Shown here piece after piece: positions 50 to 14,728 of a DNA stretch of 14,728 nt. Position 1 is the stretch's first letter. Each line of letters begins with the position of its first letter. Under the pieces are notes generated by a model, which saw only the letters and a program-made list of their open reading frames with translations, did no database searches and was not told the DNA's origin. Made by a program: the position numbers and the translations under genes. The stretch is from Campylobacterota bacterium (lineage in GTDB: Bacteria > Campylobacterota > Campylobacteria > Campylobacterales > Sulfurovaceae): assembly GCA_034722955.1 (NCBI GenBank), contig JAYEOM010000060.1, positions 1 to 14,728 of the forward strand, written 5' to 3'.

Positions 50-2788
50 TTATGAAAAGATGTATAGTGAATCCCTGACACTCTCTATATCAAATGTCTC
101 TACACTATCTTGATATGCTATATCATCCAGCTCTATACTATACTCATGCTCCATATCACTTTTTAGATCTGTCAATATATCCAGTTTGTGCATCTGCACA
201 AATGTATCTTTGGTAGCTTCAAGAAGAGTATCTATATCACAGGCATGAGTCCCAAATGAGTCATGTATAGTGGCAAAAGAGTCTGTACCTTTTTTTTGTG
301 ACTCCAGAACAGTTAAAAACAGATGAGTGGCATCTAGCGAGTGGATAAAGTTGGGGGATATGCCTTTGGTCTGTTCTGTGTGATCTATCTTGTCTGTAGG
401 TATTCTGATCTGTATAGAGTATTTTTTGCCATTGTATTTTGTGGATATCTTATCTATCTTGGTCTTGAACTCTTCTTGTATCACCTCTAGTCCTATGATG
501 GGTGTCTTCCATCTCAACTCTCTGTTTTGTTTTGCTGACTTATTGGCTATCTTCTTCATCCACTCTTTATAGGTGCTCGATGATGATAGCTCTTGGCTCA
601 TAGCCTCCCCTATCTTGTCCCTTAGATATATAGAGATAGCATCTGTAGTCGCTTCATCCCATTGCAGTTTTTCTTGCAGATTGTCATTCAAATAATCTTT
701 TATCTGTGATAGTTTTGCATCGGCTCCTGCCCCATAAACTTCTGTCATGACATTTTTCTTGGTCAAATCCCTGCTAATCTCCAGATAGATTTCATCTATA
801 TATTTTTTCTCTATCCTTATCTCCGTTTTATCTTTTTTGATGATATATCCACTATCTCTATCTATCAGCTCTTTTGTCTTGATGGCAACATCTTTATAGA
901 TATCATTAGGTGTTTCTTGATCTTTTGATGGCAAAACATTGACTTTTGATGCTCCCTTTTTGTCTCGCAGGAGTGCAGTGATATGCTGGAAGCCATTGTT
1001 TGAGCCATCCATAGCTATAGGCAGAGCTGACTTGAAGTTGTCAGGATCTTCGATAAATCCTCTATACTCATAAGCAAATGCTAGAAAGCCATAGGGTTTA
1101 TCTGCCTTCCGCAAAAATGTACTATCAAATCTATCTCTGTTTGCAAAAATTCCAAGAATATCATCTTTGTGTATATCTATCCAATTGACCCTGTCATCAA
1201 AAGATATCTTGTCCTCGCCATAGAGATTTGCTCCGTGGATCTTGAACCACCTCTCACCACTCTCTCCTAGAGGCTTCTTGATAGCAAATCTCAGCAGTGC
1301 TTTTGCCAAATCGTCTCCTTGGGGATTGAGTAGTGGCTGTGCAGGGTATGTTCTGCCTCTGAAGTCTACCTGCCATACGAAGTATATCTCATCATATTTT
1401 GCATATTTTTTGGCTTTTTCGATAGTGAGTTTATCGATATTGATTTCACATTCGAGTGTACCAATGCCAGTCAGCACCTCCTGATGTGCCTCTCTCGCTC
1501 TTTTTTGTTCCTGATATTTCTCTAGGATATTTTCGTCTATCTTCTCCTCGGAAAACCCCATCTCTTCGAGCAGCTCTTTTTGTCCTTGAAGTTTTGTCTT
1601 TATCTCTTTGAGGGAGCTGTATCTTTTTTCTTTCTCTTTTTTCAGCTCTTTTATCCTCTCTTTTGCTTGCTCTTTCAGCAGCTTTAGATGACTCTCTATA
1701 TCATCGATCAGATCACTGTTTATCTGCCATTTGGTATCTTGTATTATATTGATGGCCTTGAGCAGTTTGGGGCTAAATGTCTCCCTGCGACTCTCTACAT
1801 TTTGTCCGTCTCTTTTGGTCTTTGATTTCATTATAGATAGGTCGTATTTTGGCGAGCTATCCAAATCCCTGAGAAACCCTCCATCATCTATAGTCGTCCA
1901 TGGAGTCGGGGGAACAATCATAGGTTCAAATGATGGTGGTGTATATTTGAGTATCGCATTGTATATGTTTCGGCTCTCTTTTTCAAATGCTTTGCTAAAT
2001 TTATAGTTCAGAAAGCCCCCATCTTTTTCGTACTCTTCTAAGATACCCAAATTTATCAATTCGGCAAAGAGCTCTATGGCTACATCTATCTCTGTATCGT
2101 TTTCCCAAGCCTCTATCTTGAGCTTGTCTCTTTTGAATCTAAAGGCGACATGTTCAAAGAGAGACTCTGCTATAGTATTGGTGATCCCTTGCCTGCTTGT
2201 AGAGTTGTCATCTTCGCTATGTAGATCTTTGACTAGTAAACCAGATAGAGTCTGGAGTGTTATCCATGCCACTTCACCACTGCTGAGCAGTATGGTGGCT
2301 AGAGACATAACCTGCTCTTTCTGCTTGAGCCCCAGCTCCTCTATACTGCTCTGTAGATCTACATTTTTATCTTTGAGTATTTCAAAAGTTCTCTTGATGA
2401 CAGATGCTTCGACTCTACCCTCTCTTTTGACTTTTTTAGGATTGAGACCGTAGATGGATTTGTCATTTACCTTGTCTTGCAATCCTATGGCAATATTTTT
2501 GGCTTTTTCTTTGAGATTGTAGTCTGGCAAACTCTCCTCGCCATACAGTTTGCATATCTCGCTTTTGTATCTATCGCTGATAAATATCTTCTCTATTACT
2601 TTGGGCATCTTTTTATTTCTCAGGGTACAGATCTCATCTGAGAGTCTCTTGAGATATATTTTGCTGAAGGTATCTTTGGTTGATCGTTTTTGATTTTTTG
2701 ATTTTTTGTCAATGATCTTTTGCATTTTCTCTTCAAAATCTTCGATAGTCTGTGATTGTAGTTTTAGCTGTTTTTCTCGCAGATTCAT
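50..2788 (-). CDS. T7/T3/SP6-like single-subunit DNA-dependent RNA polymerase (about 912 aa)
   Basis: All hallmark motifs are present in order: PMIVPPTPW, DFRGRTYP, LNPQGDDLAKALL, WFKIHGANLYG-DK, ADKP-FLA, motif A PIAMDGSNNGFQH, DIY, motif B RDLTKKNVMTEVYGA, PNFIHSLDATHL and motif C IHDSFGTH. Start moved from 2824 to the ATG at 2788 (MNLREK), which has AAAAGGT 7 nt upstream. Confidence 0.96.
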   Translation of the reverse strand: MNLREKQLKLQSQTIEDFEEKMQKIIDKKSKNQKRSTKDTFSKIYLKRLSDEICTLRNKKMPKVIEKIFISDRYKSEICKLYGEESLPDYNLKEKAKNIAIGLQDKVNDKSIYGLNPKKVKREGRVEASVIKRTFEILKDKNVDLQSSIEELGLKQKEQVMSLATILLSSGEVAWITLQTLSGLLVKDLHSEDDNSTSRQGITNTIAESLFEHVAFRFKRDKLKIEAWENDTEIDVAIELFAELINLGILEEYEKDGGFLNYKFSKAFEKESRNIYNAILKYTPPSFEPMIVPPTPWTTIDDGGFLRDLDSSPKYDLSIMKSKTKRDGQNVESRRETFSPKLLKAINIIQDTKWQINSDLIDDIESHLKLLKEQAKERIKELKKEKEKRYSSLKEIKTKLQGQKELLEEMGFSEEKIDENILEKYQEQKRAREAHQEVLTGIGTLECEINIDKLTIEKAKKYAKYDEIYFVWQVDFRGRTYPAQPLLNPQGDDLAKALLRFAIKKPLGESGERWFKIHGANLYGEDKISFDDRVNWIDIHKDDILGIFANRDRFDSTFLRKADKPYGFLAFAYEYRGFIEDPDNFKSALPIAMDGSNNGFQHITALLRDKKGASKVNVLPSKDQETPNDIYKDVAIKTKELIDRDSGYIIKKDKTEIRIEKKYIDEIYLEISRDLTKKNVMTEVYGAGADAKLSQIKDYLNDNLQEKLQWDEATTDAISIYLRDKIGEAMSQELSSSSTYKEWMKKIANKSAKQNRELRWKTPIIGLEVIQEEFKTKIDKISTKYNGKKYSIQIRIPTDKIDHTEQTKGISPNFIHSLDATHLFLTVLESQKKGTDSFATIHDSFGTHACDIDTLLEATKDTFVQMHKLDILTDLKSDMEHEYSIELDDIAYQDSVETFDIESVRDSLYIFS

Positions 2789-2805
2789 TGCTTTACCTTT
2801 TTGAT

Positions 2806-2827
2806 AGTTTGCACATATAGACAAAAG
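2806..2827 (+). repeat. 22-bp direct repeat copy 1, AGTTTGCACATATAGACAAAAG; candidate phage-type RNAP promoter
   Basis: Identical to 2878-2899. The CACATATA-G core resembles the T7 CACTATA-G and SP6 GACACTATA-G initiation regions. The repeat is seen directly; promoter function is inferred. Confidence 0.75.
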
Positions 2828-2877
2828 AGTCTCGTCTTAGATTTTAGATTATATCTATATTTAGTTGAGATTTCTAA

Positions 2878-2899
2878 AGTTTGCACATATAGACAAAAG
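2878..2899 (+). repeat. 22-bp direct repeat copy 2; candidate phage-type RNAP promoter
   Basis: Identical to 2806-2827, offset by 72 bp. Confidence 0.75.
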
Positions 2900-2941
2900 G
2901 TTTCAAAGCTTTGCGTCAAAATATAATACAAAGGAGAGTCA

Positions 2942-2995
2942 ATGCTATGTGAATTAGTATGCATTATAGTTAAAGAGATAGAAGAGAACCTTTAA
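2942..2995 (+). CDS. Mini-ORF A, 17 aa (MLCELVCIIVKEIEENL)
   Basis: Strong SD AAAGGAG just upstream of ATG 2942; stop TAA at 2993-2995. No recognisable homology. Confidence 0.4.
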   Translation: MLCELVCIIVKEIEENL

Positions 2996-3008
2996 CATAA
3001 AAAAATAC

Positions 3009-3049
3009 TGCCTGTGATGGCTAGAGATACTCGAAACAAAGAGTACTCA
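3009..3049 (+). repeat. 41-bp repeat R1 copy 1 (GCC-TGTGAT-GGC hairpin plus TACTC-N8-GAGTA hairpin)
   Basis: 38/41 identical to 3307-3347 by eye alignment. Confidence 0.85.
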
Positions 3050-3078
3050 TCATATTTAATACCACAAAAAGGATCCAA

Positions 3079-3165
3079 ATGATACCGATTCCAGTATGTA
3101 TACAGATTGTGACTGTTGTTGCAACAGCTGTAGCAGGGAAAAAGTTGTTGTCGGATAAAAAGTAA
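3079..3165 (+). CDS. Mini-ORF B, 28-aa hydrophobic peptide (MIPIPVCIQIVTVVATAVAGKKLLSDKK)
   Basis: SD AAAAGGA upstream of ATG 3079. About 19 hydrophobic residues followed by a lysine-rich tail, as in single-pass membrane peptides. Confidence 0.55.
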   Translation: MIPIPVCIQIVTVVATAVAGKKLLSDKK

Positions 3166-3177
3166 GGCTTATGCCTT

Positions 3178-3200
3178 TATGTGTAGCTTGAGATAGCTAT
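3178..3200 (+). repeat. 23-bp repeat R2 copy 1 (TAGCT-TGAGAT-AGCTA hairpin)
   Basis: 21/23 identical to 3590-3612. Confidence 0.8.
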
Positions 3201-3227
3201 CTACCATTTATTACAAAAGGAGCTTAA

Positions 3228-3284
3228 ATGCTGAAATTAGAAAAACTCACAACCGTTGTGCTGCCTCCGGTTCTATGGGTGTAG
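3228..3284 (+). CDS. Mini-ORF C, 18 aa (MLKLEKLTTVVLPPVLWV)
   Basis: Strong SD AAAAGGAG upstream of ATG 3228. Its start context (TACA-AAGGAG...AATGCT) mirrors mini-ORF A. Confidence 0.4.
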   Translation: MLKLEKLTTVVLPPVLWV

Positions 3285-3306
3285 TGTGTTTGCAGAGATA
3301 GTGTGT

Positions 3307-3347
3307 TGCCTGAGATGGCTAGAGATACTCAAACCAAAGAGTACTCA
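3307..3347 (+). repeat. 41-bp repeat R1 copy 2
   Basis: 38/41 identical to 3009-3049. All three differences fall in predicted loops. Confidence 0.85.
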
Positions 3348-3370
3348 AAATTTTTTTCAAAAGGATTGCA

Positions 3371-3583
3371 GTGAGAGTATCGTATCACGCGGGTGAGAGG
3401 TTTTTACAGAGGGTATTCAAGTTTAGAGACTATACCAAAAAGCAGGTTTTAAATGCTATGAAATTGATAGAGAGAGATATATCCCATATCGAGTATCGCC
3501 ATTCAAACTTTGTACTGCCCTCTTTTCCCAACTACAGATGTATCGTAGCGGACAATACTTTAGTGACCATCGTACCCAAATGA
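3371..3583 (+). CDS. Small protein D, 70 aa, possible RelE/BECR-fold (DUF4258-like) RNase
   Basis: GTG start with SD AAAAGGA. The N-terminal S-x-HA-x-ERF-x-QR and C-terminal LVTI strand are a pattern seen in small BECR-type proteins. The fold call is an inference. Confidence 0.65.
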   Translation: MRVSYHAGERFLQRVFKFRDYTKKQVLNAMKLIERDISHIEYRHSNFVLPSFPNYRCIVADNTLVTIVPK

Positions 3584-3589
3584 TGAGTC

Positions 3590-3619
3590 TATGCGTAGCT
3601 TGAAATAGCTATTTTTTTT
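3590..3619 (+). terminator. R2 copy 2 hairpin (TAGCT-TGAAAT-AGCTA) followed by T8; candidate intrinsic terminator of the mini-ORF array
   Basis: 5-6 bp stem with a T-tract at 3612-3619. It overlaps the stop codon and last Lys codons of the convergent minus-strand gene, so the T-run may partly reflect coding. Confidence 0.5.
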
Positions 3620-5426
3620 GCATTTTCAAGATCTCATCTCTAAACTCCAATATTTCACTTTTGCTGAAACTATGCTCATCAAAACCAAAAAATCCAAACC
3701 CACCCCCATAGTAGGCTTTTTGCTCCTCTACTATATGTCGAAACATTGTGACTATCTTCTCTATACCATCTCCATAGTAGTTGAGTTTGCTGTCGTTGTA
3801 GATCAGTATATTTTTACCATAGAGTCTGTCGGCTATAGGTGAAAACTTATCTGTGAATGCCTTGACTACTGTAGTATTTCCCTCTTTTTTTTGCATTTTT
3901 ATAGATTCTATCGCCAATTGCTCATCTTTTTTGGTAACTCCTTGGGCTTTTCTATCTTTTTTGCGTATCTCATCTATCTCGTTTTGGCTTGCACCAAACT
4001 CTCTCATAGCTGGTATGTATCCGCTGTCATTGAGGGCTATGAGCATCTCCTGCCTGCTCAGTTGTACCCCTAGCGTATCAGCTACCTGTTCCAGTGAACT
4101 CTTGTTTTTTTGTTTCTCATTGTGGTGGTCTATAGTTAGATAGTTTGCCGGTAGTTCTATATCTTCTATGAGTTCTATACCTATATATAGATAGTTGTTT
4201 TTGAGTCGGTCGCTATAGCTACCGAGCTTTGCCCCCCATGATAGAGAGTGATCATAGTAGACTTGAGCATATCTATCTAGCAGCTTTTTGATAGTTCTCA
4301 TCTCCAGGTCATATCCGCCGAGTAGAAAAACTCTCTTTTTTAGTTGGAAAAATGGTGATATCTTTTTGTGAAATTTCTTTGTACCAAAGGTATGGGCATT
4401 GTATATCTCTATACTATTTGTGATCGCTCTGAGTTTTGCATTTTTGCCAAACAGTGTTTTGGGTTTTTGTATTTTGTGGCTATTGTCAGGATATATATTG
4501 ATGATCATATTTTTGCTGTCATCACCGAAGTATCCCAGCAGGGAGTCGCTCTTGTAGATGATATCCTGAGCTGATATATTGTCTCCGAGTTTGCACTCTA
4601 TGGTATAGATATGGTTCTCCTTGATAGCCAGTATATCAAACTCGTTGAATATCTCTATATCATAGGGATCATCCTCTGCAGAGTCAAAGAGCAGTACCGC
4701 ACCCACTTTAATATCGTCAAAATCGTAACACAAAAGGCTAAGATAGGTAAACTCCTCAAACAGCGTACCAAAATAACTGATATTTCTCAATGCCCTGTAG
4801 TCACTCCCTATCATACCTAGATCTATAAGAGCCTCTATCTGCCCAGGGTATGCAGAGGCTATCGCCTGTAGTCTGTTCTGGTGCAGGTATCTCCTGATCC
4901 TAAAGAGGATATTGAAGTCGCCAAAGAGCAGCAGCAGTGACTTTTTTTTGCTCAATATCTTCGCTTTATCTATCTCATTGGTGAGTTGATAACCCAGAGA
5001 GAGTACAAAGTCATCTACCATCATGTTGTGGGTGATAGTGTGACTGCCAAATCCACTCTCATCTATCAGATTGTAGCTATTTTCGAACTTGTCATAGGCT
5101 ACTATCTTGCCCCCATTGTGTAGGATAGACCCAGAGAGTACGACTAGCAGTGCGGTATCTGCATTGGTGGCATTGAGATAGAGTTCTGTAGTATCGATAC
5201 CATTGATATGGTTTTGGATGGAGAGCATATCTGCCTTGGAGTCCTCGTCTACCTCTATGAGCTCCACCTCTTGTGCTAGTGATACTATCCATCTCTGTAT
5301 CTTGAGTGCATAGTGCTTCTCTTTGTCGTCGTAGATGAGTATATGTTTGGTTGTTCTATCTATAAATTCAAAGATGATGGGTACAAGCTCGTGGAGGTCT
5401 CTGCTGATGATAGTGATGAGTGTCAT
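3609..5426 (-). CDS. Fusion of a Card1/Can2-like CARF + PD-(D/E)xK nuclease (DUF1887-like) with a C-terminal NrN-like DHH phosphodiesterase (about 605 aa)
   Basis: N-terminal Rossmann/CARF-like start MTLITIIS...LYLNATNAD. Nuclease motifs GTLFEEF and NEFDILAIKENHIYTIECKLG. From about 4340 a second domain: RVFLLGGYDLEM, LSWGAKL, IDHH, SSLEQVA, NDSGYIPAM, DRKAQGVT. The ATG at 5426 is preferred because the 5630 start would overlap corA. Confidence 0.75.
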   Translation of the reverse strand: MTLITIISRDLHELVPIIFEFIDRTTKHILIYDDKEKHYALKIQRWIVSLAQEVELIEVDEDSKADMLSIQNHINGIDTTELYLNATNADTALLVVLSGSILHNGGKIVAYDKFENSYNLIDESGFGSHTITHNMMVDDFVLSLGYQLTNEIDKAKILSKKKSLLLLFGDFNILFRIRRYLHQNRLQAIASAYPGQIEALIDLGMIGSDYRALRNISYFGTLFEEFTYLSLLCYDFDDIKVGAVLLFDSAEDDPYDIEIFNEFDILAIKENHIYTIECKLGDNISAQDIIYKSDSLLGYFGDDSKNMIINIYPDNSHKIQKPKTLFGKNAKLRAITNSIEIYNAHTFGTKKFHKKISPFFQLKKRVFLLGGYDLEMRTIKKLLDRYAQVYYDHSLSWGAKLGSYSDRLKNNYLYIGIELIEDIELPANYLTIDHHNEKQKNKSSLEQVADTLGVQLSRQEMLIALNDSGYIPAMREFGASQNEIDEIRKKDRKAQGVTKKDEQLAIESIKMQKKEGNTTVVKAFTDKFSPIADRLYGKNILIYNDSKLNYYGDGIEKIVTMFRHIVEEQKAYYGGGFGFFGFDEHSFSKSEILEFRDEILKMQKK

Positions 5427-5486
5427 ATCGCTACTTTTTAATTTAATTTTATCCAAAAGTGCTATCATAAGAGCTAAAGGATTTGT
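5427..5486. promoter_or_regulatory. 60-bp divergent promoter region between the CARF-nuclease/NrN gene and corA
   Basis: Plus strand: extended -10 TGcTATCAT at 5460-5468 and SD AAAGGA at 5476-5481. Minus strand: -10-like TATGAT (5469-5464) and TAAAAT (5451-5446). Confidence 0.5.
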
Positions 5487-6767
5487 ATGCCACAAGATAT
5501 ATATAGTTGCCATACTTTTATGTTGCCATTTATCATAGAGTGCTATGATCACAAGAGAGAGATCATCGAAGCCAAAAGCTGGCAATATAAGGAACACAAA
5601 GACAACTATAATGAGATAGCATATTTTCATAGCTTCTTCAAAGATAGTATGTTTACCAAAGATAAGGATGCAAACTCTTCATTTTATACCAAAGATGAGT
5701 ATAGGGATAGTCAGTTTGTCATCAGCAGATCAAAAGAGTATGAATTAAATCTTAAAAGTGTAAACCTTAGAGTGTTTAAGACAGGTGTAGGGATATTATC
5801 TTTTCATATAGAAAATAGATCATATTCAGATATCAAAGATATCCTGGAAATCAATGACTATGGCAGGAGAATCTATCCCGAATATTTAGATGAAAAACTC
5901 CAATGCACTCTTGTCCCAAACTATATTCGATTAAAAGATATAAAAGAAGATTTTAGATACGATCAACAACCCACAAAAATAAAACTCTCAAAAATCATAA
6001 CAGAGTTTCTACCAGAAGAGAAAATAAGAACAGCCATAGATGATAGAATGTTCGTTATAAGTTTTTACAAAAACAGTAGTTTTTCAAATGATCTGAAAAG
6101 AGATTATATGAAAAATAGTAAGTGGTATGAGTATATTTTCATAGATGGAAATGGTCTCAATGTCCAAAATCGTGAAATGCAAAACAATCTAGTCAAAAAA
6201 GCCACCTATCCCAGATGGCAGGGCTATGGTACTATGTATGGTATCAGCAGATACTCTTTTGTATGTGTGGCAGATGAGAGTGAGTTTATCAGAGAGACTG
6301 TTGAGGTGCATATGCAGACGATCTATTTTCAGATGTTTTCTCTACTCTTGATGCTGAGGGCTACTATATTGAAGTTCTCCAAAGAGGTGAGTGATATAGC
6401 TAAAGAGATAGACACTAAAGGCACAGATATTAAAGTCGAAGATCTATACAAACGATATATACAGTTCGTAAATAGCTTCTACTTCAGAGAGATAACAGCC
6501 AAAGACCAAGGTCTAGAGCTATATGATCAAGCTAGAGAGATACTGAGGATAGATAGTGACATCAAAGACTTGGACAATGAGATAGGGGAATTGCATAGAT
6601 ATGTCTCAATGATAGAGGGCAATGAGAATACCAAAAAAATGGATAGATTGCAATATTGGGGTTTTCCTCTGCTCTTTTTGTCTCTTATCACTGGTTTTTT
6701 TGGTATGAATATATTCCCACAAGGCTTTTTAGACACCATATCCAATTGGCTTAAAGCGTTATTTTAA
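5487..6767 (+). CDS. corA: CRISPR type III-associated CorA-family membrane effector
   Basis: Large soluble N-terminal domain (IDDRMFV, TYPRWQGYGTMYGISRYSFV, YFREITAKDQGLELY), then a TM helix ending in the CorA signature ITGFFGMN. First gene of the cmr operon. Confidence 0.88.
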   Translation: MPQDIYSCHTFMLPFIIECYDHKREIIEAKSWQYKEHKDNYNEIAYFHSFFKDSMFTKDKDANSSFYTKDEYRDSQFVISRSKEYELNLKSVNLRVFKTGVGILSFHIENRSYSDIKDILEINDYGRRIYPEYLDEKLQCTLVPNYIRLKDIKEDFRYDQQPTKIKLSKIITEFLPEEKIRTAIDDRMFVISFYKNSSFSNDLKRDYMKNSKWYEYIFIDGNGLNVQNREMQNNLVKKATYPRWQGYGTMYGISRYSFVCVADESEFIRETVEVHMQTIYFQMFSLLLMLRATILKFSKEVSDIAKEIDTKGTDIKVEDLYKRYIQFVNSFYFREITAKDQGLELYDQAREILRIDSDIKDLDNEIGELHRYVSMIEGNENTKKMDRLQYWGFPLLFLSLITGFFGMNIFPQGFLDTISNWLKALF

Positions 6768-6776
6768 GGAAAAAAA

Positions 6777-7787
6777 ATGAACAAAAGTAAATTTAAGGCA
6801 GAGTTCACACTGAAACAGCACACCCCAATCATCCATTTCCAGAGTGGTCAGAACGGAGCAACGCTGAGGGCTACAGAGTTGAAACCGAAGTTTGACAGGT
6901 TTTTATTGCACAATGTTGAAGATATCCCATTCATCAAAAATGCCAATGGACACAAATCATTGGATTATAAAGTAACTATTGCAATAAATGGGCAAGGGGT
7001 TAAAGGCACTCCCAACAACTTTTTGTATTTTGCCAATAATTCAGCTCAAGGAGATGAATTTAAATACACTATCAAAAGTCAGAGTGTTATCGTTACTTTC
7101 TTTTCATACAGAACTGATTTGATAGAATCAATAAATAGATATTTTAATGATTTTTTACTGATTACAAACTTTGGATCCAGAAGTACAAAAGGGTATGGTA
7201 GTTTTGGTAAAAGTATAGAGAATGCTGAAACTGTATTAAGAAAATATTATCCAATTGTCTTCAAGATAACAAATGTTGGCGACATAAGTAAATGGGAAGT
7301 TAAAGTTGACACTATTCACAAAAAATTAAAATCTGGAATCAATTTCATACAATATCATAAATCTTTACTTTTCCAATACATGTGTACCCAAAACATTAGA
7401 TGGGAAAAGAGAAATATCAAAGAGAAGTTTTCAGTTTTAGCAACAGGAAAGCCCCCGATAGACTGCGATACAAGAGGTCAATATAGATATATCAGAGCGA
7501 TGTTGGGAACTGCCGGTATCAATGAATATGACAGAGGTAACAAAACTGTAACGATAGATGGTGGAGAGATAGAGAGGTTTGCCTCTCCAATTATTTATAA
7601 AATTATTGGAAACAGCATATATCTTCTAGGAGATAAAAGTTATGAAAAGATAATGGGTAAACCTTTTATTTTTCAGTATAAACAAAGCAGTTTCACCATT
7701 AATACACCATCCAAAAGTGAATTTGATTTGCATAAATTTTTAAAGTTTGTAGAGAAAAATGACAATATAATCAGTGAGGTAAAATAG
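6777..7787 (+). CDS. cmr1: Type III-B RAMP Cmr1 (B. fragilis-like)
   Basis: LKQHTPIIHFQ...ATLRATELKPKFDRFL N-terminus, G-rich loop NFGSRSTKGYGSF, ERFASPI; lies directly before cas10. Confidence 0.85.
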   Translation: MNKSKFKAEFTLKQHTPIIHFQSGQNGATLRATELKPKFDRFLLHNVEDIPFIKNANGHKSLDYKVTIAINGQGVKGTPNNFLYFANNSAQGDEFKYTIKSQSVIVTFFSYRTDLIESINRYFNDFLLITNFGSRSTKGYGSFGKSIENAETVLRKYYPIVFKITNVGDISKWEVKVDTIHKKLKSGINFIQYHKSLLFQYMCTQNIRWEKRNIKEKFSVLATGKPPIDCDTRGQYRYIRAMLGTAGINEYDRGNKTVTIDGGEIERFASPIIYKIIGNSIYLLGDKSYEKIMGKPFIFQYKQSSFTINTPSKSEFDLHKFLKFVEKNDNIISEVK

Positions 7788-9056
7788 ATGACCTACATAG
7801 CACTAACCATAGGACCGATATACAAGACACTGGCAAATGCCAAGAATCCCAAAGAGCTTTTTGCAAGTAGCTATATCTTTAGCTATATTATGAGAAATAT
7901 CATCAAAGAGTTCAAGAGTAGAGAGTTTGTCATCCCCTATATAAAAGATGACTCTATCTTTGATGAGAGCAGTAAAGTGGGTCTTTTTCACGACAGATTT
8001 ATTTTTAAGTCACAAGAGCAAGAGAGTGATATCTATAAACTAAAAAGAGTCATTGAAAATATCTCAAAAGATACAGCATCCAAGCTAGGGTTGAATCATA
8101 AAGATGTAGAAGAGTATCTACAGATAAATTATTTGGCAAAAGAGATAGGTGATGAAAATCCCATAGAAGCACTCAGCCCCTATCTAGATACAAAAGAGCT
8201 TTTTTATCAACTCTCTTCTAGTGATAGCTTTATCTCATCTCTTAGCAGAAAAAAGGGAGACAGAGATAATTTTCTTACAGCCAATAAAAATATCATAGAT
8301 GATTTGAAGAAGCTTTCGTATCATAAATACTACTGTGTCGTGCATGCCGATGGTGACAAGATGGGCGAAGCTATCAAAGATAAAGCCAATATAGAAAATA
8401 TCTCCAAAAGTCTTTTTGGTTACTGTATGGAGTCAAACCATCTCATACGAGAGTTTGGAGGTCAAACCATCTTTGCAGGGGGTGATGACTTGATGTTTAT
8501 AGCACCTACGATCTCAAGAGATAGAACAAAAACTATTTTTGACTTATGCGAAGATATATCACAAAGTTTCAACATAGATAAGGCAACACTGAGTTTTGGT
8601 ATCAGTATAAACTATATAAAATATCCACTCTATGAAGCAGTAGAAAACTCAAGAGAGTTACTTTTTGACAAAGCAAAAAATGAGCAGAGAAACAACATAG
8701 CCTTCAATATCACAAAACACAGCGGTCAAAGCTTCAGTACTGTGATACACAAAGGTGATGATGAAATTTACAGTAAATTTTTAGCTTTTACCTCAAGTGT
8801 AAATGACAAAGACAATATCGGTAACTTCCTAGACTCAATACATCACAAGATAGCTACATATGAAACCACATTGTCAAATATCAAAAATGACAAAACCAAA
8901 CTAACAAACTTTTTTGTTAACTACTTCAATAAAGATGAGCATAAAAATAACAAAGAGTTTTTTGATCATTTAGTGGATTTCATCTATGTAGCAACCATAG
9001 AACAAGTCTATACAACACTTAGATTTATCAAGTTTATTCAAGGAGATAAGTCATGA
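7788..9056 (+). CDS. cas10: Cas10/Cmr2, compact, no HD domain, intact GGDD palm
   Basis: YIALTIGPI...ELFASSYIFS, YCVVHADGDKMG, IFAGGDDLMF, TLSFGISI..KYPLYEA. Confidence 0.95.
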   Translation: MTYIALTIGPIYKTLANAKNPKELFASSYIFSYIMRNIIKEFKSREFVIPYIKDDSIFDESSKVGLFHDRFIFKSQEQESDIYKLKRVIENISKDTASKLGLNHKDVEEYLQINYLAKEIGDENPIEALSPYLDTKELFYQLSSSDSFISSLSRKKGDRDNFLTANKNIIDDLKKLSYHKYYCVVHADGDKMGEAIKDKANIENISKSLFGYCMESNHLIREFGGQTIFAGGDDLMFIAPTISRDRTKTIFDLCEDISQSFNIDKATLSFGISINYIKYPLYEAVENSRELLFDKAKNEQRNNIAFNITKHSGQSFSTVIHKGDDEIYSKFLAFTSSVNDKDNIGNFLDSIHHKIATYETTLSNIKNDKTKLTNFFVNYFNKDEHKNNKEFFDHLVDFIYVATIEQVYTTLRFIKFIQGDKS

Positions 9057-9376
9057 TAGATATTGAAAAAATAAAAAAAGATATTCCTGTAATGCTGAAA
9101 TCTTTAGATATAAACAAAATCATCCTTTTTGGCAGTTATGCTTATGGAACCCCTCACAAAGACAGTGATTTGGATATCTGTATAGTTGAAGAAAAGGTAG
9201 TGTCAAAAATGCAAGAAAAGAGAGAGATCAGAAAACTTCTTGGCGAGATAGATATGCCAATGGATATTATTCTAGTAGATGAAGATTACTATCAAACTCA
9301 TAGTGATAAAAATTGGATAAATACTGCCCTATATGATGCCAGACAAAAAGGAGAGATTTTATATGAAAAAGAATGA
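9053..9376 (+). CDS. Minimal nucleotidyltransferase (MNT) antitoxin-like protein
   Basis: IILFGSYAYG...DSDLDI Pol-beta motif plus a third Asp in MDII; 107 aa. Confidence 0.9.
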   Translation: MIDIEKIKKDIPVMLKSLDINKIILFGSYAYGTPHKDSDLDICIVEEKVVSKMQEKREIRKLLGEIDMPMDIILVDEDYYQTHSDKNWINTALYDARQKGEILYEKE

Positions 9377-9767
9377 TATAAAAAATAGTGCCGATCTATT
9401 TTTGTATAAAGCAATAATTGATTTCAATACTGCAAAAGCTATTTTTAAAAGCTTTGAAAATGATGATATTGAGATATATATAGAAAAAATATATTTTGAT
9501 TTGCAGCAAAGCAGTGAAAAGCTTCTCAAAAACCTTCTATCCAAAAATGGTGTAGATGTTCCAAAGATTCACGATATAAAGCAATTAATAAGAGTTTGTG
9601 AAAAAAACAATATCAATCTTATGAGTAGAGTAGAGGTATTGATAGATTTGAGTGATTATGCAGTGGAAGGTCGCTATGACATTATCTGTGATGATATATC
9701 AAATAGTGATCTCTATTTTGAATTGGTAGAACAGTTTATAATATTTGTAAAAGGAGACAAAGCATGA
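9363..9767 (+). CDS. HEPN-domain protein (MNT-HEPN pair)
   Basis: FDLQQSSEKLLK...VPKIHDIKQL...DYAVEGRY fits the HEPN family consensus (F-x-x-QQ-x-x-EK-x-LK...P-x-x-HD...RY). ATG 9363 with a GGAG SD is preferred over 9333. Confidence 0.85.
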   Translation: MKKNDIKNSADLFLYKAIIDFNTAKAIFKSFENDDIEIYIEKIYFDLQQSSEKLLKNLLSKNGVDVPKIHDIKQLIRVCEKNNINLMSRVEVLIDLSDYAVEGRYDIICDDISNSDLYFELVEQFIIFVKGDKA

Positions 9768-10729
9768 GATATCTAGTCACGCTTACACCACTAGAGCCTT
9801 TTCTGTTCGGAGGAGATACGACTTTTGGCAAGAAGGGCGATGAGGAGAAAGGCACCTATCTGGTCAAATCACGGCAATTCCCTCAACAGAGTGCAGTTTT
9901 GGGGATGCTCAAAAAAGAGATCATGACCCAGTCAGGAGTTTTGACACGCAAAGTGAGAGGTGAATGGGTAGATAAGCAGAAGAAAAAAGAGGCAGAAGCT
10001 CTAGTAGGAGTTGAAAAATTTGATATAGGCTCTGAAGGTTTACAGGATTTTGGTATTATCAAATCTCTTGGTTCGATCTTTTTGATACAGGAGCAAAAAC
10101 AATATATCAAAAAAGTAGATATTGATTCTTATACTTACAAAGATGGCTTACTAGAAAGCTATAATCCAGAAATAGATATTTATGATAATTTTGTAGAGAC
10201 AAAAACAAGTGAAAAATTATCATCAGGCGATATCTTCAAACCCATAGAGCAGACAGGCAACAAGACAGGAGGAGAGGATGACTCACTCTTCAAAAAAACC
10301 TCCTATCTACTAAAATATGATTTCAAGTTTGCATTTTATCTTGAGTGCGAGTATGAGTTGAGAGACTCCATCATCCATCTAGGAGCAGACAGAAGCAGCT
10401 TCAAGCTGGAGATCAGAGAGGATAATGACAGTTTGGAGTATAGTGATGAAAATGGCTATTTGACACTCATGAGCGATGCCTATATCACTCTACCTATCAA
10501 AGAACATTGTGTTTTTGCTATTACTAGTGAGATAAGTTTCCAGAGCTTACAGAACAAAAAGCATGCGACCAAGAGTAATGCATTTCAAAAAAGTACAAAA
10601 ATATTTCTCTATGAGAAAGGTTCAGTTTTTATAAACCCATCGGATGAACTAGTAAAAAACCTAAACAATAAAAACTGCCAACGGATCGGTTACAATAAAC
10701 ACACTTACGAAAAAGGACAAAATAGATGA
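9764..10729 (+). CDS. cmr3: Cmr3 (Cas5-family RAMP)
   Basis: YLVTLTPLEPFLFGG, S..FPQQSAVLGML, LGADRSSF, LYEKGSVF, IGYN; position in the operon. Confidence 0.9.
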   Translation: MRYLVTLTPLEPFLFGGDTTFGKKGDEEKGTYLVKSRQFPQQSAVLGMLKKEIMTQSGVLTRKVRGEWVDKQKKKEAEALVGVEKFDIGSEGLQDFGIIKSLGSIFLIQEQKQYIKKVDIDSYTYKDGLLESYNPEIDIYDNFVETKTSEKLSSGDIFKPIEQTGNKTGGEDDSLFKKTSYLLKYDFKFAFYLECEYELRDSIIHLGADRSSFKLEIREDNDSLEYSDENGYLTLMSDAYITLPIKEHCVFAITSEISFQSLQNKKHATKSNAFQKSTKIFLYEKGSVFINPSDELVKNLNNKNCQRIGYNKHTYEKGQNR

Positions 10730-11574
10730 AAACAGAACTATACACCATAGAGACACTCAGCAACCTCCATGTAGGAGCAGGGGATATCAACTTTGATGTC
10801 ATAGACAACCAAGTGCAGAGAGATGCCATCACCAACCTGCCCAATATCAATAGCAGTAGTCTAAAGGGTGCCTTTAGAGAGCATTTCACACAGTATGATA
10901 GTGATGGCAAAAAGCTGGATGATACACTGATGGTCAAGTATATCTTTGGAGGTGCCAATGATGATGAGAACTCTCATGCTACAGGAGCCTATAGTTTCTT
11001 TGAGGCACAGCTACTTACTCGACCAGTACGAAGCGATGCCAAGCCATACTTCAACGCTACAAGCCCCTCAGTCATCAAGAGTCTGTTAGATACGATAGAA
11101 AATTTCGATATAGAGTTTAATAAAGAATTAACACAAGCACTTACAAACCTTTCAAAGTTGAATCCTCAAAAAAATAATCCTATTATCTTTGAAGATATTC
11201 CAAAGACCAGACTCGAAGATGATCCAGCCAAATATCAAAACTTTGATGTCTCGAAACTTACAGAATTTTTAGGTGTTGATCTTGCACTCTTTGCAGATAG
11301 TGATTTCGCAGAATTAGACCTGCCTGTACTAGCTAGAAATGCACTCGAAAATGGAGTGAGCCAAAACCTCTGGTATGAAGAGGTCGTACCCAAAAAGTCC
11401 AAGTTTTTCTTCTGCATCGGCAAACCAAATATAGACAATACAGACCCAAAAGATTATGATCAGAAGATCAAAGGGTTTGAAAACAGATTTGGCACAGAGG
11501 GTCACAAAGTACAGTTGGGAGCCAACAAATCCATAGGGTATGGATTTAGTCTGGTCAAAAAGGTATCGTTATGA
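10726..11574 (+). CDS. cmr4: Cmr4 (Cas7-family backbone RNase)
   Basis: LHVGAG...VIDNQVQRD...PNINSSSLKGAFRE, ARNALENGVSQNLWYEEVVP, QLGANKSIGYG. Confidence 0.95.
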   Translation: MKTELYTIETLSNLHVGAGDINFDVIDNQVQRDAITNLPNINSSSLKGAFREHFTQYDSDGKKLDDTLMVKYIFGGANDDENSHATGAYSFFEAQLLTRPVRSDAKPYFNATSPSVIKSLLDTIENFDIEFNKELTQALTNLSKLNPQKNNPIIFEDIPKTRLEDDPAKYQNFDVSKLTEFLGVDLALFADSDFAELDLPVLARNALENGVSQNLWYEEVVPKKSKFFFCIGKPNIDNTDPKDYDQKIKGFENRFGTEGHKVQLGANKSIGYGFSLVKKVSL

Positions 11575-11957
11575 GCAAGAAGAGCATAGAGAGGTATATA
11601 CCCAAGGCGATAAAGGTGTTGGATGCTACTTTTGATGACGGTGTTATCCCATCAGCTTACAATGGATATATATCTTCATTTGGTGCGAGTGTGATGCAGA
11701 GTGGACTGCTACCTACGCTAGCACTATTTGAAAATACCAATGCCTCCACAAAGGAGAACAAAGAGTATCTATCGTATCTCATAGTCAATATCCTAAGAGA
11801 CAACAGAGATGATGTTTCACTCCTGAGAGAGGTATTGGTTAGAGAAGAGCGTGGAGAGAGTCGCAACCATCTCAAAGAGCAGATACTAGATATATCTATA
11901 GCCATCAAGTTAAGTATCAGAACTTTCAAGCTCAAAAAAGGTGATAAAGATGAGTAA
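11571..11957 (+). CDS. cmr5: Cmr5 (Cas11 small subunit)
   Basis: 128 aa, helical, YNGYISSFGASVMQSGLLPTLA; lies between cmr4 and cmr6. Confidence 0.88.
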   Translation: MSKKSIERYIPKAIKVLDATFDDGVIPSAYNGYISSFGASVMQSGLLPTLALFENTNASTKENKEYLSYLIVNILRDNRDDVSLLREVLVREERGESRNHLKEQILDISIAIKLSIRTFKLKKGDKDE

Positions 11958-12900
11958 TCCAAATCTAGGTTGGCTCTTTTATAAGGATTATTTCACCGCT
12001 ATAAGAGACTGGACCAATCCAAAAGCAAATGAAAAGGATATATCCAGAAAAGTAGATGAGTTGATAAAAAAAACTCCAACCATAAAAGAGACAGAGATAC
12101 TAGGCTCTACACACTTCAAAGCTACCACTACTTATCCAGGACTGCTGCTAGGCAGCGGCAATGCACATGAATTGCCAGGTATTGAAGGTCAAGCCATATT
12201 GGGCTTTCACTTCGACTACACCAGCGGATTGCCCATCATCCAAGGCTCATCTATCAAGGGAGTGCTGAGAAGTGCGTTCAGACATTGGGAATATATAGCA
12301 GAGATCGGGGGTGAGACTTTAGTCTCACTGATAGATGTAGAGAACTTGGAAAGAGAGATATTTGACAACGGTGATATATTTTTCGATGCACAGATCATCA
12401 GTGGCGGCAGGATACTAGGCGATGACTACATCACACCACACGGTGACGATCTACTCAAGAATCCCATACCCCTGAGATTTATCAAAGTCCTGCCCAATGT
12501 GACATTTAGGTTTGATTTTGAGTTGAGTGACGGGATTTTGGAAAAGGATAAAAAAATCATACTCTTTACTAAAATAATAGAAGATTTAGGAGTAGGAGCA
12601 AAAACCAATGTAGGGTATGGGAAGTTTGATATAGAGGATATGGAGCAACAGATAAAAAAGGAGCAACAAAAACTCAAGAGAGAAGAGGCGGAGAGTAGAG
12701 TAACTAGTGCTAATGATGACTACAGTAAAGCCATCGCACTAATAGATGCCACTATAAAATTGGACAATAAGCTTTTTAAAAATTTACGAGATGAAGTTGA
12801 ACTAGATAGCCATGAAAAGAGCAAGGTCAAAGAACATTTTGATAGCAAATTTGAGGGTGATAGTAAATTTAAAAACAGGATACACAAGATATTAACTTAA
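11950..12900 (+). CDS. cmr6: Cmr6 (RAMP)
   Basis: NLGWLFYK, YPGLLLGSG, GFHFDYTSGLPIIQGSSIKGVLRS, DYITPH, NPIPLRFIKV, GVGAKTNVGYG. ATG 11950 is preferred over GTG 11941. Confidence 0.93.
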   Translation: MSNPNLGWLFYKDYFTAIRDWTNPKANEKDISRKVDELIKKTPTIKETEILGSTHFKATTTYPGLLLGSGNAHELPGIEGQAILGFHFDYTSGLPIIQGSSIKGVLRSAFRHWEYIAEIGGETLVSLIDVENLEREIFDNGDIFFDAQIISGGRILGDDYITPHGDDLLKNPIPLRFIKVLPNVTFRFDFELSDGILEKDKKIILFTKIIEDLGVGAKTNVGYGKFDIEDMEQQIKKEQQKLKREEAESRVTSANDDYSKAIALIDATIKLDNKLFKNLRDEVELDSHEKSKVKEHFDSKFEGDSKFKNRIHKILT

Positions 12901-12990: not shown

Positions 12991-13227
12991 GTGACCATAC
13001 GAAAAAACTTTACTATGTCAGACTCTGTTGTGATGGATTTGGAATATCTCGCTAAAAAATTGCACAAAAAACAGTCTCAAGTGATACAAGAGCTTATAGT
13101 CCATAAAATGAAAGAGTTTGAAAAAGAAAAAAAACTAGATATGCTGGAGAAGATATCGGGAATATTTACGGGCAAGATACCTGAAGACATATCGATACAA
13201 TCCATAAAGTCAGATAGTGAAAATTAG
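12991..13227 (+). CDS. Ribbon-helix-helix (CopG/VapB-like) antitoxin
   Basis: N-terminal strand IRKNFTMS followed by two helices (..LEYLAKK..KQSQVIQELI); overlaps the PIN gene. Confidence 0.75.
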   Translation: MTIRKNFTMSDSVVMDLEYLAKKLHKKQSQVIQELIVHKMKEFEKEKKLDMLEKISGIFTGKIPEDISIQSIKSDSEN

Positions 13228-13648
13228 AAGGATTTTTTTTGATGCCAATATTTTCAACGATATATTTGATGAAAACAGAGTCCATCATAACTCTAGCAAA
13301 GAGTCTTTGCTCTATGCTCTGCAAAATGATATAAGATGCTGTACCAGTTGTGATATAGTTACCAATATCTACTACATAACTGCCAAATACACTTCAAAAA
13401 ATCAAGCATTGGATGCCCTTGACTACCTAAAAGAGATAGTGGAGATCATCCCTTTTTCTTACGAAGAACTCACCATTGCGATAGATCTGATGAAGAGAGA
13501 CGGTGAGTATAAGGATATGGAGGATACTATACAGTATATTTTAGCTATAGAGCAGCATTGTGACTTGATCATCTCAAATGATAAACGATTTGTCTCTAAA
13601 GAGATAGAGTGCGTAAGCAGTGATGATTTTGCAAATTCTCGCAGATAG
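13217..13648 (+). CDS. vapC: PIN-domain (VapC-like) toxin
   Basis: IFFDANIFND, DMEDTIQY, IISNDKRF acidic PIN motifs; 143 aa. Confidence 0.88.
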   Translation: MKIRRIFFDANIFNDIFDENRVHHNSSKESLLYALQNDIRCCTSCDIVTNIYYITAKYTSKNQALDALDYLKEIVEIIPFSYEELTIAIDLMKRDGEYKDMEDTIQYILAIEQHCDLIISNDKRFVSKEIECVSSDDFANSRR

Positions 13649-13656
13649 AAAAGTCA

Positions 13657-14728
13657 ATGTATACAAAACCTCTCTCCTACATCACCCTCCCGTCAGCTCT
13701 CAAGGATGCCTACGAGGAGATCAGCAAGCTCTCCAGTGGACTTGATGAGGTGAGCTATGCAGAGTTCGAGAGGGAGCTTGGCAAAAATATAGCACAACTA
13801 TCACAAAGACTCCAAAGCGGACTCTACTCCCCAGAACCACTCAAAAAGATAGAGATAGACAAGCCAAACTCTGATGAGAAGCGCCCCATAGCCCTATCTG
13901 CCATCAAAGACAAGATAGTCCAGAGAGTGCTATATAAAAATCTAAATCCATACTTTGACAAGCTCTTCTCTGACAAATCCTACGCCTACAGACCTGACAA
14001 ATCTACCATAAAAGCGATCAATAGAACTACGGATTTCCTGAACAAAAAGAGACTGCATATCGTCAAGACCGATATCGACGATTTTTTTGAAACTATAGAC
14101 CATGATATACTTCTAGAGATACTCGATACTCATATCTCAGACAAAAGCATCACGCGGCTCATATCACTCTTTGTGCAGGTGGGAGGGTTTCAAAACTTTG
14201 ACTATAGTAGCCATCTGCAGGGCATCCATCAGGGGGATATACTCTCCCCGCTCCTCTCCAATATCTATCTGGATGTTATGGATAGATTTCTAGAGAAGCA
14301 TGATATCGCTTTTGTGAGATATGCCGATGACTTTGTAATGCTCTTTAAGAGCAAAAATGAAGCCTATGGTACCCTCAAAGAGTTGAGAAAATTTCTCAAA
14401 ACCATAAAGCTGACTCTCAACAAAGAGAAGACCAGCGTCACACATATCAGTGATGGTTTTGACTTTTTAGGTATAGAGTTCAAAGGCAGAAACAGGCATA
14501 TCCAAAACGAAAGACTCCAAAGATCCGTATCCAAGATAGCCCAACTCTCCAAGACAAAGCTGGGATTTGCAGCGTTTACCAAAGAGCTAAACAGCTATCT
14601 ACTGTCGCTCAAAAACTACTATCTCAAGATACTCACACCCAATGCCCCACAACACAAGCTACTCCAGGATGCCCTCATAGCTACCCTATCACACAAAGTT
14701 TATCTCTCCAAAAAGTCAAAAGAGATCA
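13657..14728 (+). CDS. Group II intron-like CRISPR-associated reverse transcriptase, 3'-truncated by the window edge (probably RT-Cas1)
   Basis: Hand translation from ATG 13657 stays open to the window end: SSGLDEVS (RT0), IDKPNSDEKRPIAL, KDKIVQ, SYAYRP, KTDIDDFFETIDH, GIHQGDILSPLLSNIYL, FVRYADDF (YADD at 14320-14331), FDFLG. The Cas1 part is not visible and is inferred from context. Confidence 0.92.
   Translation, partial: MYTKPLSYITLPSALKDAYEEISKLSSGLDEVSYAEFERELGKNIAQLSQRLQSGLYSPEPLKKIEIDKPNSDEKRPIALSAIKDKIVQRVLYKNLNPYFDKLFSDKSYAYRPDKSTIKAINRTTDFLNKKRLHIVKTDIDDFFETIDHDILLEILDTHISDKSITRLISLFVQVGGFQNFDYSSHLQGIHQGDILSPLLSNIYLDVMDRFLEKHDIAFVRYADDFVMLFKSKNEAYGTLKELRKFLKTIKLTLNKEKTSVTHISDGFDFLGIEFKGRNRHIQNERLQRSVSKIAQLSKTKLGFAAFTKELNSYLLSLKNYYLKILTPNAPQHKLLQDALIATLSHKVYLSKKSKEI

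Follow-up and report, generated by a model that had tools for sequence, protein, structure and literature searches.

A conserved two-class hairpin element in the micro-ORF cassette of a T7-like RNA polymerase at a type III-B CRISPR locus

The cassette hairpins, their homologues and their pairing

We analysed a stretch of 14,728 nucleotides (nt) from a Campylobacterota bacterium (contig JAYEOM010000060.1, assembly GCA_034722955.1), referred to throughout as the window. It carries the gene for a T7-like single-subunit RNA polymerase, genes of a type III-B CRISPR system and, in the region 2792-3608 between the minus-strand genes for the polymerase and for a protein of 673 amino acids (aa), a plus-strand cassette of micro-open reading frames (micro-ORFs) with recurring short hairpins, which are the subject of this study. 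An earlier sequence-only reading had placed four such hairpins at 3010-3021, 3184-3199, 3308-3319 and 3596-3611, and all four are present at these positions, with start-to-start spacings of 174, 124 and 288 nt. Their reported distance of 12-23 nt from a stop codon is likewise correct, as they lie 14, 18, 23 and 12 nt after the ORFs 2942-2995, 3079-3165, 3228-3284 and 3371-3583. The copies, which have either a GCC or a TAGCT stem, represent two paralogous pairs inside longer repeats. Two features had been overlooked: a bulged second hairpin (P2, the GCC hairpin itself being P1) begins 2 nt after each GCC copy, at 3024-3048 and 3322-3346, and the TAGCT copies share a conserved 5' flank, TATGYG. 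Both P1 and P2 were the minimum-energy structures in single-sequence folds, with modest z-scores.

Homologous loci were retrieved through similarity of the polymerase protein, the hairpin motif playing no part in retrieval, and comprised one Nitratiruptor contig (L001), 38 metagenome loci and 11 viral loci. The window and L001-L028 make up the family set (29 loci, polymerase identities 28-77%), with a close subfamily, which includes the window, and a distant one (L013-L028); L029-L050, loci of phage-type polymerases with 215,071 bases in total, served as the comparison set. A covariance model, R1, was built from 50 GCC-type (class A) copies chosen by pattern. At E<=1 it gave 112 matches; all fell within the family loci, and the 215,071 bases of the phage-type loci contained none. 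The strict count, at E<=0.001 in 263,164 bases with L015 (a duplicate of part of L013) left out, was 89 matches, all of them on the micro-ORF strand, and it is these 89 to which the figures below refer.

In the window's own genome (2,512,544 bases) R1 matched only the two window copies, and the loose pattern GCYTGNRATRGC occurred 20 times on both strands, four of them within the 602 bases that hold the hairpins; chance therefore does not explain the cluster. The polymerase was present in two of 61 related genomes and strong R1 matches were confined to those two, with two matches in G000 and six in G006. A match in G033 (E 4.3e-6) was rejected as a false positive, lying unpaired inside a ribosomal-protein coding region, and a further genome outside the polymerase-bearing two, G046, gave a match at E 7.6e-4. 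A search of the whole window against Rfam 15 at E<=1 returned no family matching the element, only an unrelated weak match at 8425-8476, and L007, L013, L020 and L021 likewise gave nothing matching it at E<=0.1. The L001 polymerase is only 40% identical to that of the window, yet L001 repeats the whole layout: two promoter-like elements, two GCC hairpins with P2, one TAGCT hairpin, an MIPI...C peptide, an ...LPPVLW peptide, a 70-aa protein and a terminator at the end. The differences between its P2 stems and those of the window are compensatory.

Across these loci the element takes two forms. Class A has a GCC/GGC-type stem of 3 base pairs (bp) with a U-GNRA-Y hexaloop and is always followed, after 2-6 nt, by P2, which carries an octaloop R-A-A-N-N-N-A-A on a stem of 6-10 bp with a 1-2 nt bulge and freely variable sequence. 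Class B, to which the TAGCT copies belong, has the 5' flank UAUGYG, a 5-bp stem and a U-GNRA-U/A loop, and is restricted to the close subfamily.

Applied to the homologous loci and the genome, the covariance model upheld both the pairing and the GNRA loop. In the R1 alignment, which is fitted to the model itself, 91.0% of 781 pair cells are paired, compared to 44-49% when partners were slid by one column, and the covariation score was 0.555 versus 0.184 in the control. The outermost pair of P1 is GC in 69 copies, GU in 13, AU in 3 and CG in 1, and the second is CG in 70, UA in 11, GC in 6 and UG in 2; the loop-adjacent third pair is CG in 89/89. Two-sided changes were found in all four inner P2 pairs. 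Among cells that pair on one strand only, G-U cells, which pair in the sense RNA, outnumber A-C cells 51 to 20, indicating that the pairing belongs to the sense strand. The proposal that the closing pair covaries thus held in part: the pair differs between the classes within the window, but across homologues it is fixed in each class (C-G in 89/89 class A copies, U-A in 20/21 of class B), and the true covariation is located in the outer stem pairs and in P2.

The loops are conserved more strictly than the stems. In P1 the loop reads U-GNRA-Y in all 89 matches, with 6 nt in 88 and one extra base (7 nt) in the remaining one. The P2 loop has 8 nt in 87/89 and carries A at position 2 in 87/87, position 3 in 84/87, position 7 in 87/87 and position 8 in 85/87. 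The earlier statement that all loop variants stay within GNRA was borne out, with G-N-R-A enclosed by a helix in the 89 class A matches and in 21 aligned class B copies; it is flanked by U and Y, not by a Watson-Crick closing pair, so that sequence does not decide whether it is a tetraloop proper.

Two circumstances count against taking these figures at face value: the R1 seeds were picked by a pattern that demands GNRA, which makes the 89/89 loop figure partly model-driven, and many copies are within-locus paralogues, so the shuffle controls (70.4% paired, 0/500 reaching the observed value) overstate significance. Given the GNRA-picked seeds, the model-fitted alignment and the paralogous copies, we also made counts that do not depend on the model. 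A promoter pattern, described below, matched 57 times on the cassette strand versus twice on the other. In 48 of the 57 a 3-bp stem carrying a U-G-N-R-A-N loop lies 4-14 nt downstream, and in three others the motif is present although the rule overlooked it. When class B copies were picked by flank and loop alone, 20 of the 21 matches had 5/5 pairs, and three of the five stem pairs showed two-sided changes. The 100% pairing of the 21 aligned class B rows, in comparison, is by construction, as a pairing filter had been applied to them. The covarying stems, the sense-strand G-U bias and the constant GNRA loop argue strongly for selection on RNA structure, as the sequence-only reading had suggested, and the hairpins are almost certainly copies of one conserved, two-class structured RNA element of the sense strand.

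Position relative to promoters, cistrons and terminators

A U-run follows P2 in 18 of the 89 matches, 13 times at the end of a cassette and five times internally, one of the latter being the third hairpin of the window. The remaining 71 matches lack a U-run, and in 68 of them a Shine-Dalgarno site and a start codon lie downstream, with 45-65 nt between the end of P1 and the start codon in 63/68 (median 54 nt, quartiles 52 and 57). It had been claimed that a hairpin follows every mini-ORF. This is true in the window, but it is not the conserved relation; what is kept instead is the distance to the next start and to the promoter, and the association with the terminator. Judged by these positions, the element is better read as a leader and terminator tag, with one copy per cistron.

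Promoter-like sequences were found with the consensus ...TTGCACATATAGACAAAAG in the close subfamily and ...CCCAASTGGTGACTAAAGA or ...GGYGASTATAGA in the distant one, and we take them to resemble promoters of the T7/SP6 group; they would define the specificity of the polymerase. In the distant subfamily such a sequence, highly conserved there, lies within 34 nt upstream of P1 in 43 of 67 matches, and each micro-ORF has its own promoter, tag and ribosome-binding site. In 36 of these 48 canonical promoter-hairpin pairs, P1 lies 7-10 nt downstream of the promoter core. If transcription begins at the G of the ...AAAG/TATAG end, a start site that we presume from likeness to T7-group promoters, P1 of the distant subfamily starts at about +11. 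A same-strand promoter of T7/SP6 type, albeit putative, upstream of the element and a locus that encodes the polymerase are what would be expected for the leader of T7-like polymerase transcripts, and comparison of the loci makes it likely that the element is a tag on the polymerase's own transcripts.

At the other end of the unit, the element takes part in candidate intrinsic terminators. The fourth window hairpin is followed directly by 8 T, and the third has 7 T starting 4 nt after P2, a partial likeness, while no such run follows the first and second. The terminator at the end of the window cassette (3590-3619) overlaps the stop codon of the convergent gene, and a class B hairpin with a T-run also closes the cassette in L003, L005 and L006.

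Genes of the cassette and its CRISPR surroundings

The features of the window are listed in the table below. Five residues of the polymerase, D594, K677, Y685, H842 and D843, are invariant in 20 homologues and probably correspond to catalytic residues of the T7 enzyme. The polymerases of L013 (6866-10366) and L020 (2965-6366) are longer than the others, at 1166 and 1133 aa compared to about 900-1080, and L013 has no visible separate gene for the CARF nuclease, which may be fused to its polymerase. In three loci of the distant subfamily (L014 4419-6104, L021 4910-6595 and L023 120-1670) an AAA-ATPase-like/PD-(D/E)xK protein (PF09820 and PF08011) adjoins the polymerase. Neither the polymerase nor the 70-aa protein matched a PADLOC model.

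Features of the window, with coordinates in the numbering of the whole stretch
Feature	Coordinates	Strand	Remarks
T7-like single-subunit RNA polymerase, 913 aa from ATG at 2791	50..2791	-	Divergent from the cassette; Pfam PF00940, E 6.8e-94; PHROG 414, E 1.5e-164
Promoter-like 21-mer, copy 1	2807..2827	+	17-nt core twice in the genome, both here; ACATATAGA elements at the same places in L001, L003, L007-L009 and L011
Promoter-like 21-mer, copy 2	2879..2899	+	42 nt upstream of micro-ORF 1
Micro-ORF 1, 17 aa, LCELVCII type	2942..2995	+	Related MANPLCELVCIILG peptides in L016-L019, L021, L025 and L026
Class A hairpin P1, copy 1, GCC / U-GUGA-U / GGC	3010..3021	+	R1 match 3006-3060, E 2.2e-14
P2 hairpin, copy 1, 3+5 bp stem, one-base bulge, octaloop GAAACAAA	3024..3048	+	Compensatory changes in L001 and other loci
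Micro-ORF 2, 28 aa, hydrophobic, MIPIPxC...GK type	3079..3165	+	Starts 57 nt past the end of P1
Class B hairpin, copy 1, flank TATGTG, then TAGCT / U-GAGA-U / AGCTA	3178..3199	+	
Micro-ORF 3, 18 aa, ...LPPVLWV type	3228..3284	+	
Class A hairpin P1, copy 2, GCC / U-GAGA-U / GGC	3308..3319	+	R1 match 3304-3358, E 4.5e-15
P2 hairpin, copy 2 (3322-3346), then 7 T (3351-3357)	3322..3357	+	Possible attenuator before the 70-aa gene
Conserved 70-aa protein (YHAGERFLQRVF...)	3371..3583	+	In 23/29 loci; AlphaFold2 (AF2) model, mean pLDDT (per-residue confidence) 94.9
Class B hairpin, copy 2, flank TATGCG, stem-loop TAGCT / U-GAAA-U / AGCTA (3596-3611), then 8 T (3612-3619)	3590..3619	+	Cassette terminator
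CARF / PD-(D/E)xK nuclease fused to CorA-associated DHH hydrolase, 673 aa	3609..5630	-	PADLOC CARF4--CARF_PDDEXK, E 1.2e-42; DHH_CorA, E 3.1e-73
CRISPR-associated CorA, Cmr1, Cas10b/Cmr2, MNT-HEPN pair, Cmr3, Cmr4, Cmr5, Cmr6 (type III-B)	5487..12900	+	PADLOC, Pfam

The micro-ORFs encode conserved peptide families of 7-28 aa, namely MIPIPxC...GKELL, ...FLPPxxW, ...PLCELVCIILG, MINLPxPLPLF and MGxCIC..., of which the first combines a hydrophobic helix with a charged tail. These peptides could be membrane-active effectors. The family of the 70-aa protein comprises 238 clusters, none of which has a name or a Pfam domain, and the protein's Atlas neighbours are unnamed clusters as well; its residues H6, R10, R14, D36 and K70 are invariant. 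Neither the window protein nor any of 22 family members matched a Pfam family at E<0.09, NCBIfam and PHROG gave no match, a sequence-profile search of the PDB gave only E>1, and Foldseek returned nothing at E<=0.001. The model has the topology beta-alpha-alpha-beta-beta-beta, and its weak structural matches are mostly to RelE, ParE, HigB and colicin D chains, with CdiA also among them. Such a likeness weakly suggests a relation to RelE/ParE proteins and is to be taken as a lead, not as membership. A predicted complex of the polymerase with the 70-aa protein scored 0.15, with a mark of 0.32, and points neither way.

Clustering of the ORFs from the 29 loci found the 70-aa protein in 23, a CARF nuclease, DHH or CorA protein in 21, Cmr1 in 14, Cas10 in 12 and Cmr3 in 10; most loci without these genes end before such genes would appear. 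Cassettes embedded in type III-B loci with genes for CorA, a DHH hydrolase and a CARF / PD-(D/E)xK nuclease comprise those of the window (50-12900), L003, L006, L009, L011, L013, L014, L016-L019, L021, L025 and L028. Distant-subfamily loci show an overlap between the CARF-nuclease gene and the start of the polymerase gene. Such gene order points to a functional link between the single-subunit polymerase and CRISPR signalling.

Three related loci, L007 (6506-6743), L009 (11844-12910) and L028 (121-300), have a CRISPR array adjoining polymerase or Cmr genes, and the 37-nt repeats of these arrays end in ...TTTYGAGAC. The window's own contig has no array, and the two arrays of its genome lie on contigs C43 and C109. 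When the 30 spacers of these five arrays were compared to the cassettes, no meaningful match was found, the single match covering 17 nt. Elsewhere in the window, a nucleotidyltransferase/HEPN pair (9053-9767) lies between cmr2 and cmr3 and has homologues in L003 and L012 only, and a PIN-domain gene followed by a reverse transcriptase gene (RVT_1, E 5.8e-38) at 13217-14727 runs off the end of the contig.

What the element may do

The explanation that we consider best overall, and on which we are evenly divided, is that the element is a two-class punctuation tag read by a factor of the cassette. The tag would punctuate a unit divergent or convergent to the T7-like polymerase gene, standing before each micro-ORF and, with a U-run, at the end. 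A cassette-encoded protein, for which the 70-aa protein with its weakly RelE/ParE-like model and the polymerase itself are the candidates, would bind or cut at the tag, thereby defining and protecting both ends, 5' and 3', of every micro-ORF message and setting its expression strength. A trans-acting factor that recognises the loops is probable, since the loop letters are fixed while the stems drift and the stability of the 3-bp P1 by itself is marginal. The narrower proposal that the hairpin serves as a factor-binding or processing site may well be correct, although we stop just short of calling it probable. Such a site would explain why there is one tag per cistron, why tag and promoter occur in either order and why P1 is kept upstream of the terminator hairpin, an arrangement by which messages could end and begin at the same type of site.

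Several observations weigh against this explanation, in addition to the choice of seeds and the paralogy of copies discussed above. About 6 of the 57 promoters are followed by a deviant hairpin or by none. In the close subfamily, a promoter-like ACATATAGA element lies between P2 and the Shine-Dalgarno site in 9 of 22 matches, and messages begun there would lack the tag. In the distant subfamily, P1 lies behind a single-stranded stretch of about 10 bases, which is poor for simple protection of a 5' end. The 70-aa protein resembles known folds only weakly (best Z 5.1), with values that are common for the search.

The element shares traits with several known signals and differs from each. Lambda boxB, a 5-bp stem with a pentaloop of GNRA-like fold, is bound by the N protein, needs boxA and Nus factors and acts on the multisubunit host polymerase. 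Like boxB, the element is a short nascent-RNA hairpin near a promoter in which the loop, rather than the stem sequence, is the expected recognition target. Unlike boxB, it has a hexaloop, U-GNRA-Y, and no pentaloop in any match, a stem of 3 or 5 bp and usually an obligatory second hairpin; it is also found at terminators, the polymerase is of the single-subunit T7 type, and we noticed no arginine-rich N-like protein, the conserved 70-aa protein having no Pfam family. The put RNA of HK022, of about 70 nt, binds the host polymerase directly and suppresses termination. It is similarly a two-hairpin cis-acting RNA downstream of a promoter, whereas the element described here measures about 40 nt, is repeated before every cistron and also acts, together with a U-run, as a putative terminator.

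The stem-loops of T7 late messages and the T7 RNase III sites are, like the element, structured intercistronic punctuation, often beside promoters, with protective hairpins at message ends. The duplex of an RNase III site is long and irregular, extends over about 20 bp and includes an internal loop, and its loops are not conserved; in contrast, the stems here measure about 3-10 bp (3 bp in P1 and 6-10 bp in P2) and the conserved information lies in the loops. Intrinsic terminators of class I T7 type resemble the fourth window hairpin and the 13 terminal P1-P2 copies in that all consist of a hairpin and a U-run, but such terminators have neither a conserved P1 upstream nor loop letters that are conserved, and 71/89 copies have no U-run.

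Among the alternatives, the main and live rival is a signal directed at the polymerase, in which the T7-like enzyme itself would read the hairpin in nascent RNA as a pause without a U-run, placed shortly after promoter escape and ahead of each ribosome-binding site, as termination with one, or as an instruction to enter an anti-termination state, the effect that lambda boxB and HK022 put have on the host polymerase. We consider this unlikely, even though the element strictly co-occurs with the polymerase clade, P1 begins about 11 nt past the presumed start site and is kept just upstream of all 13 terminal P2 terminators, and a weak class B hairpin (-5.9 kcal/mol) lies immediately upstream of 8 U where the cassette ends, both in the window and in L003, L005 and L006. 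Anti-termination tags placed right at terminators would be self-defeating, a purely transcriptional signal does not predict the tight spacing to the start codon, and P1 lies outside the terminator stem in the P2-type terminators; moreover, we know of no T7-type polymerase that reads an RNA hairpin sequence-specifically. That tight spacing, in which each cistron has a single copy at a constant distance ahead of its ribosome-binding site, would fit hairpins that are passive and have no dedicated reader, serving as protection of fast, ribosome-free polymerase transcripts from host RNases, as insulation of cistrons from misfolding or as a boundary for ribosome standby. T7 messages rely on terminal stem-loops for stability, and P1 and P2 fold as minimum-energy structures of single sequences. 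Purely passive hairpins are nevertheless distinctly improbable, as they leave the invariant letters of the loops (U, G, A and Y in P1, four A's in P2) unexplained across polymerases of 28% identity, and both the 3-bp stem, a poor stabiliser, and the unpaired bases before P1 at the presumed 5' end speak against them.

Invariant nucleotides concentrated in two loops are also what small aptamers show, and P1-P2 might be a small ligand-sensing leader, for example for a Cas10 second messenger, that couples target recognition to expression of the micro-ORFs; its place in type III-B loci with CorA and DHH genes and the double use of P2 as a terminator stem in 13 copies would suit this role. It remains very unlikely, given that no alternative pairing of the ribosome-binding site or other expression platform was seen in the variable A/U-rich spacer and that no Rfam riboswitch matched. 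Docking of the GNRA loop into P2 was considered and rejected: the loop N and R vary within L014 and L021 with P2 unchanged and without covariation, so loop-helix docking is not evident, which counts against ligand sensing as well.

The sequence-only reading had further proposed cleavage by Cas6. Its grounds are that a Cas6 gene lies elsewhere in the genome (contig C11), that the cassette stands in a type III-B locus, and that, as in Cas6-cut CRISPR repeats, a small hairpin is repeated along one transcript, where a cut at its base would give hairpin-tagged products. However, the repeats of C43, C109, L007, L009 and L028 have no stem or loop in common with P1, the copies form no regular array, conserved micro-ORFs with ribosome-binding sites and promoters of their own, not spacers, lie between them, and no cas6 was noticed in the retrieved loci, where no systematic search for it was made; the idea found no support and we regard it as highly improbable. 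Least probable of all, and close to negligible, is that there is no RNA signal, the hairpins being a protein-binding inverted repeat in DNA or leftovers of the tandem duplication. The two paralogous pairs within longer repeats in the window would be expected of such leftovers, but the 89/89 strand bias, the excess of G-U over A-C cells, the compensatory changes between loci, the asymmetric loop and the retention of the element beside polymerases only 28-40% identical all oppose it. In falling order of probability, the rivals after the polymerase-directed signal are thus passive stabilisation, ligand sensing and Cas6 cleavage.

Among the entries listed by full-text literature searches, none connects a T7-like polymerase to type III CRISPR or describes the hairpin motif, and one passage of PMC3417536 concerns an unrelated type of polymerase. 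Cis-acting hairpins read through a GNRA-type loop are a known type of signal; to our knowledge, none has been reported for a single-subunit polymerase of the T7 type. The unit carrying the element described here itself appears undescribed.

Taken together, the promoter, leader tag, ribosome-binding site and tagged terminator would form a private grammar that is kept across polymerases down to 28% identity. R1 provides a specific handle for locating further cassettes, and the motif gives a precise set of mutations with which to probe the control of an orthogonal transcription unit. A broader and more doubtful proposal sees in the hairpin pair an RNA address tag for an orthogonal type III-B expression unit with a dedicated loop reader, through which Cas10 signalling would lead to a burst of membrane-active peptides. 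The polymerase, encoded in one operon with the CARF nuclease beside CorA/DHH and Cmr1-6, would transcribe only the tagged micro-ORFs, whose products would be hydrophobic, cysteine-rich peptides of 7-28 aa and the weakly RelE/ParE-like 70-aa protein, and a reader of the U-GNRA-Y and R-A-A-N-N-N-A-A loops would gate or process the messages. If true, the cassette would represent a new effector arm of CRISPR immunity with a promoter, leader and terminator grammar of its own.

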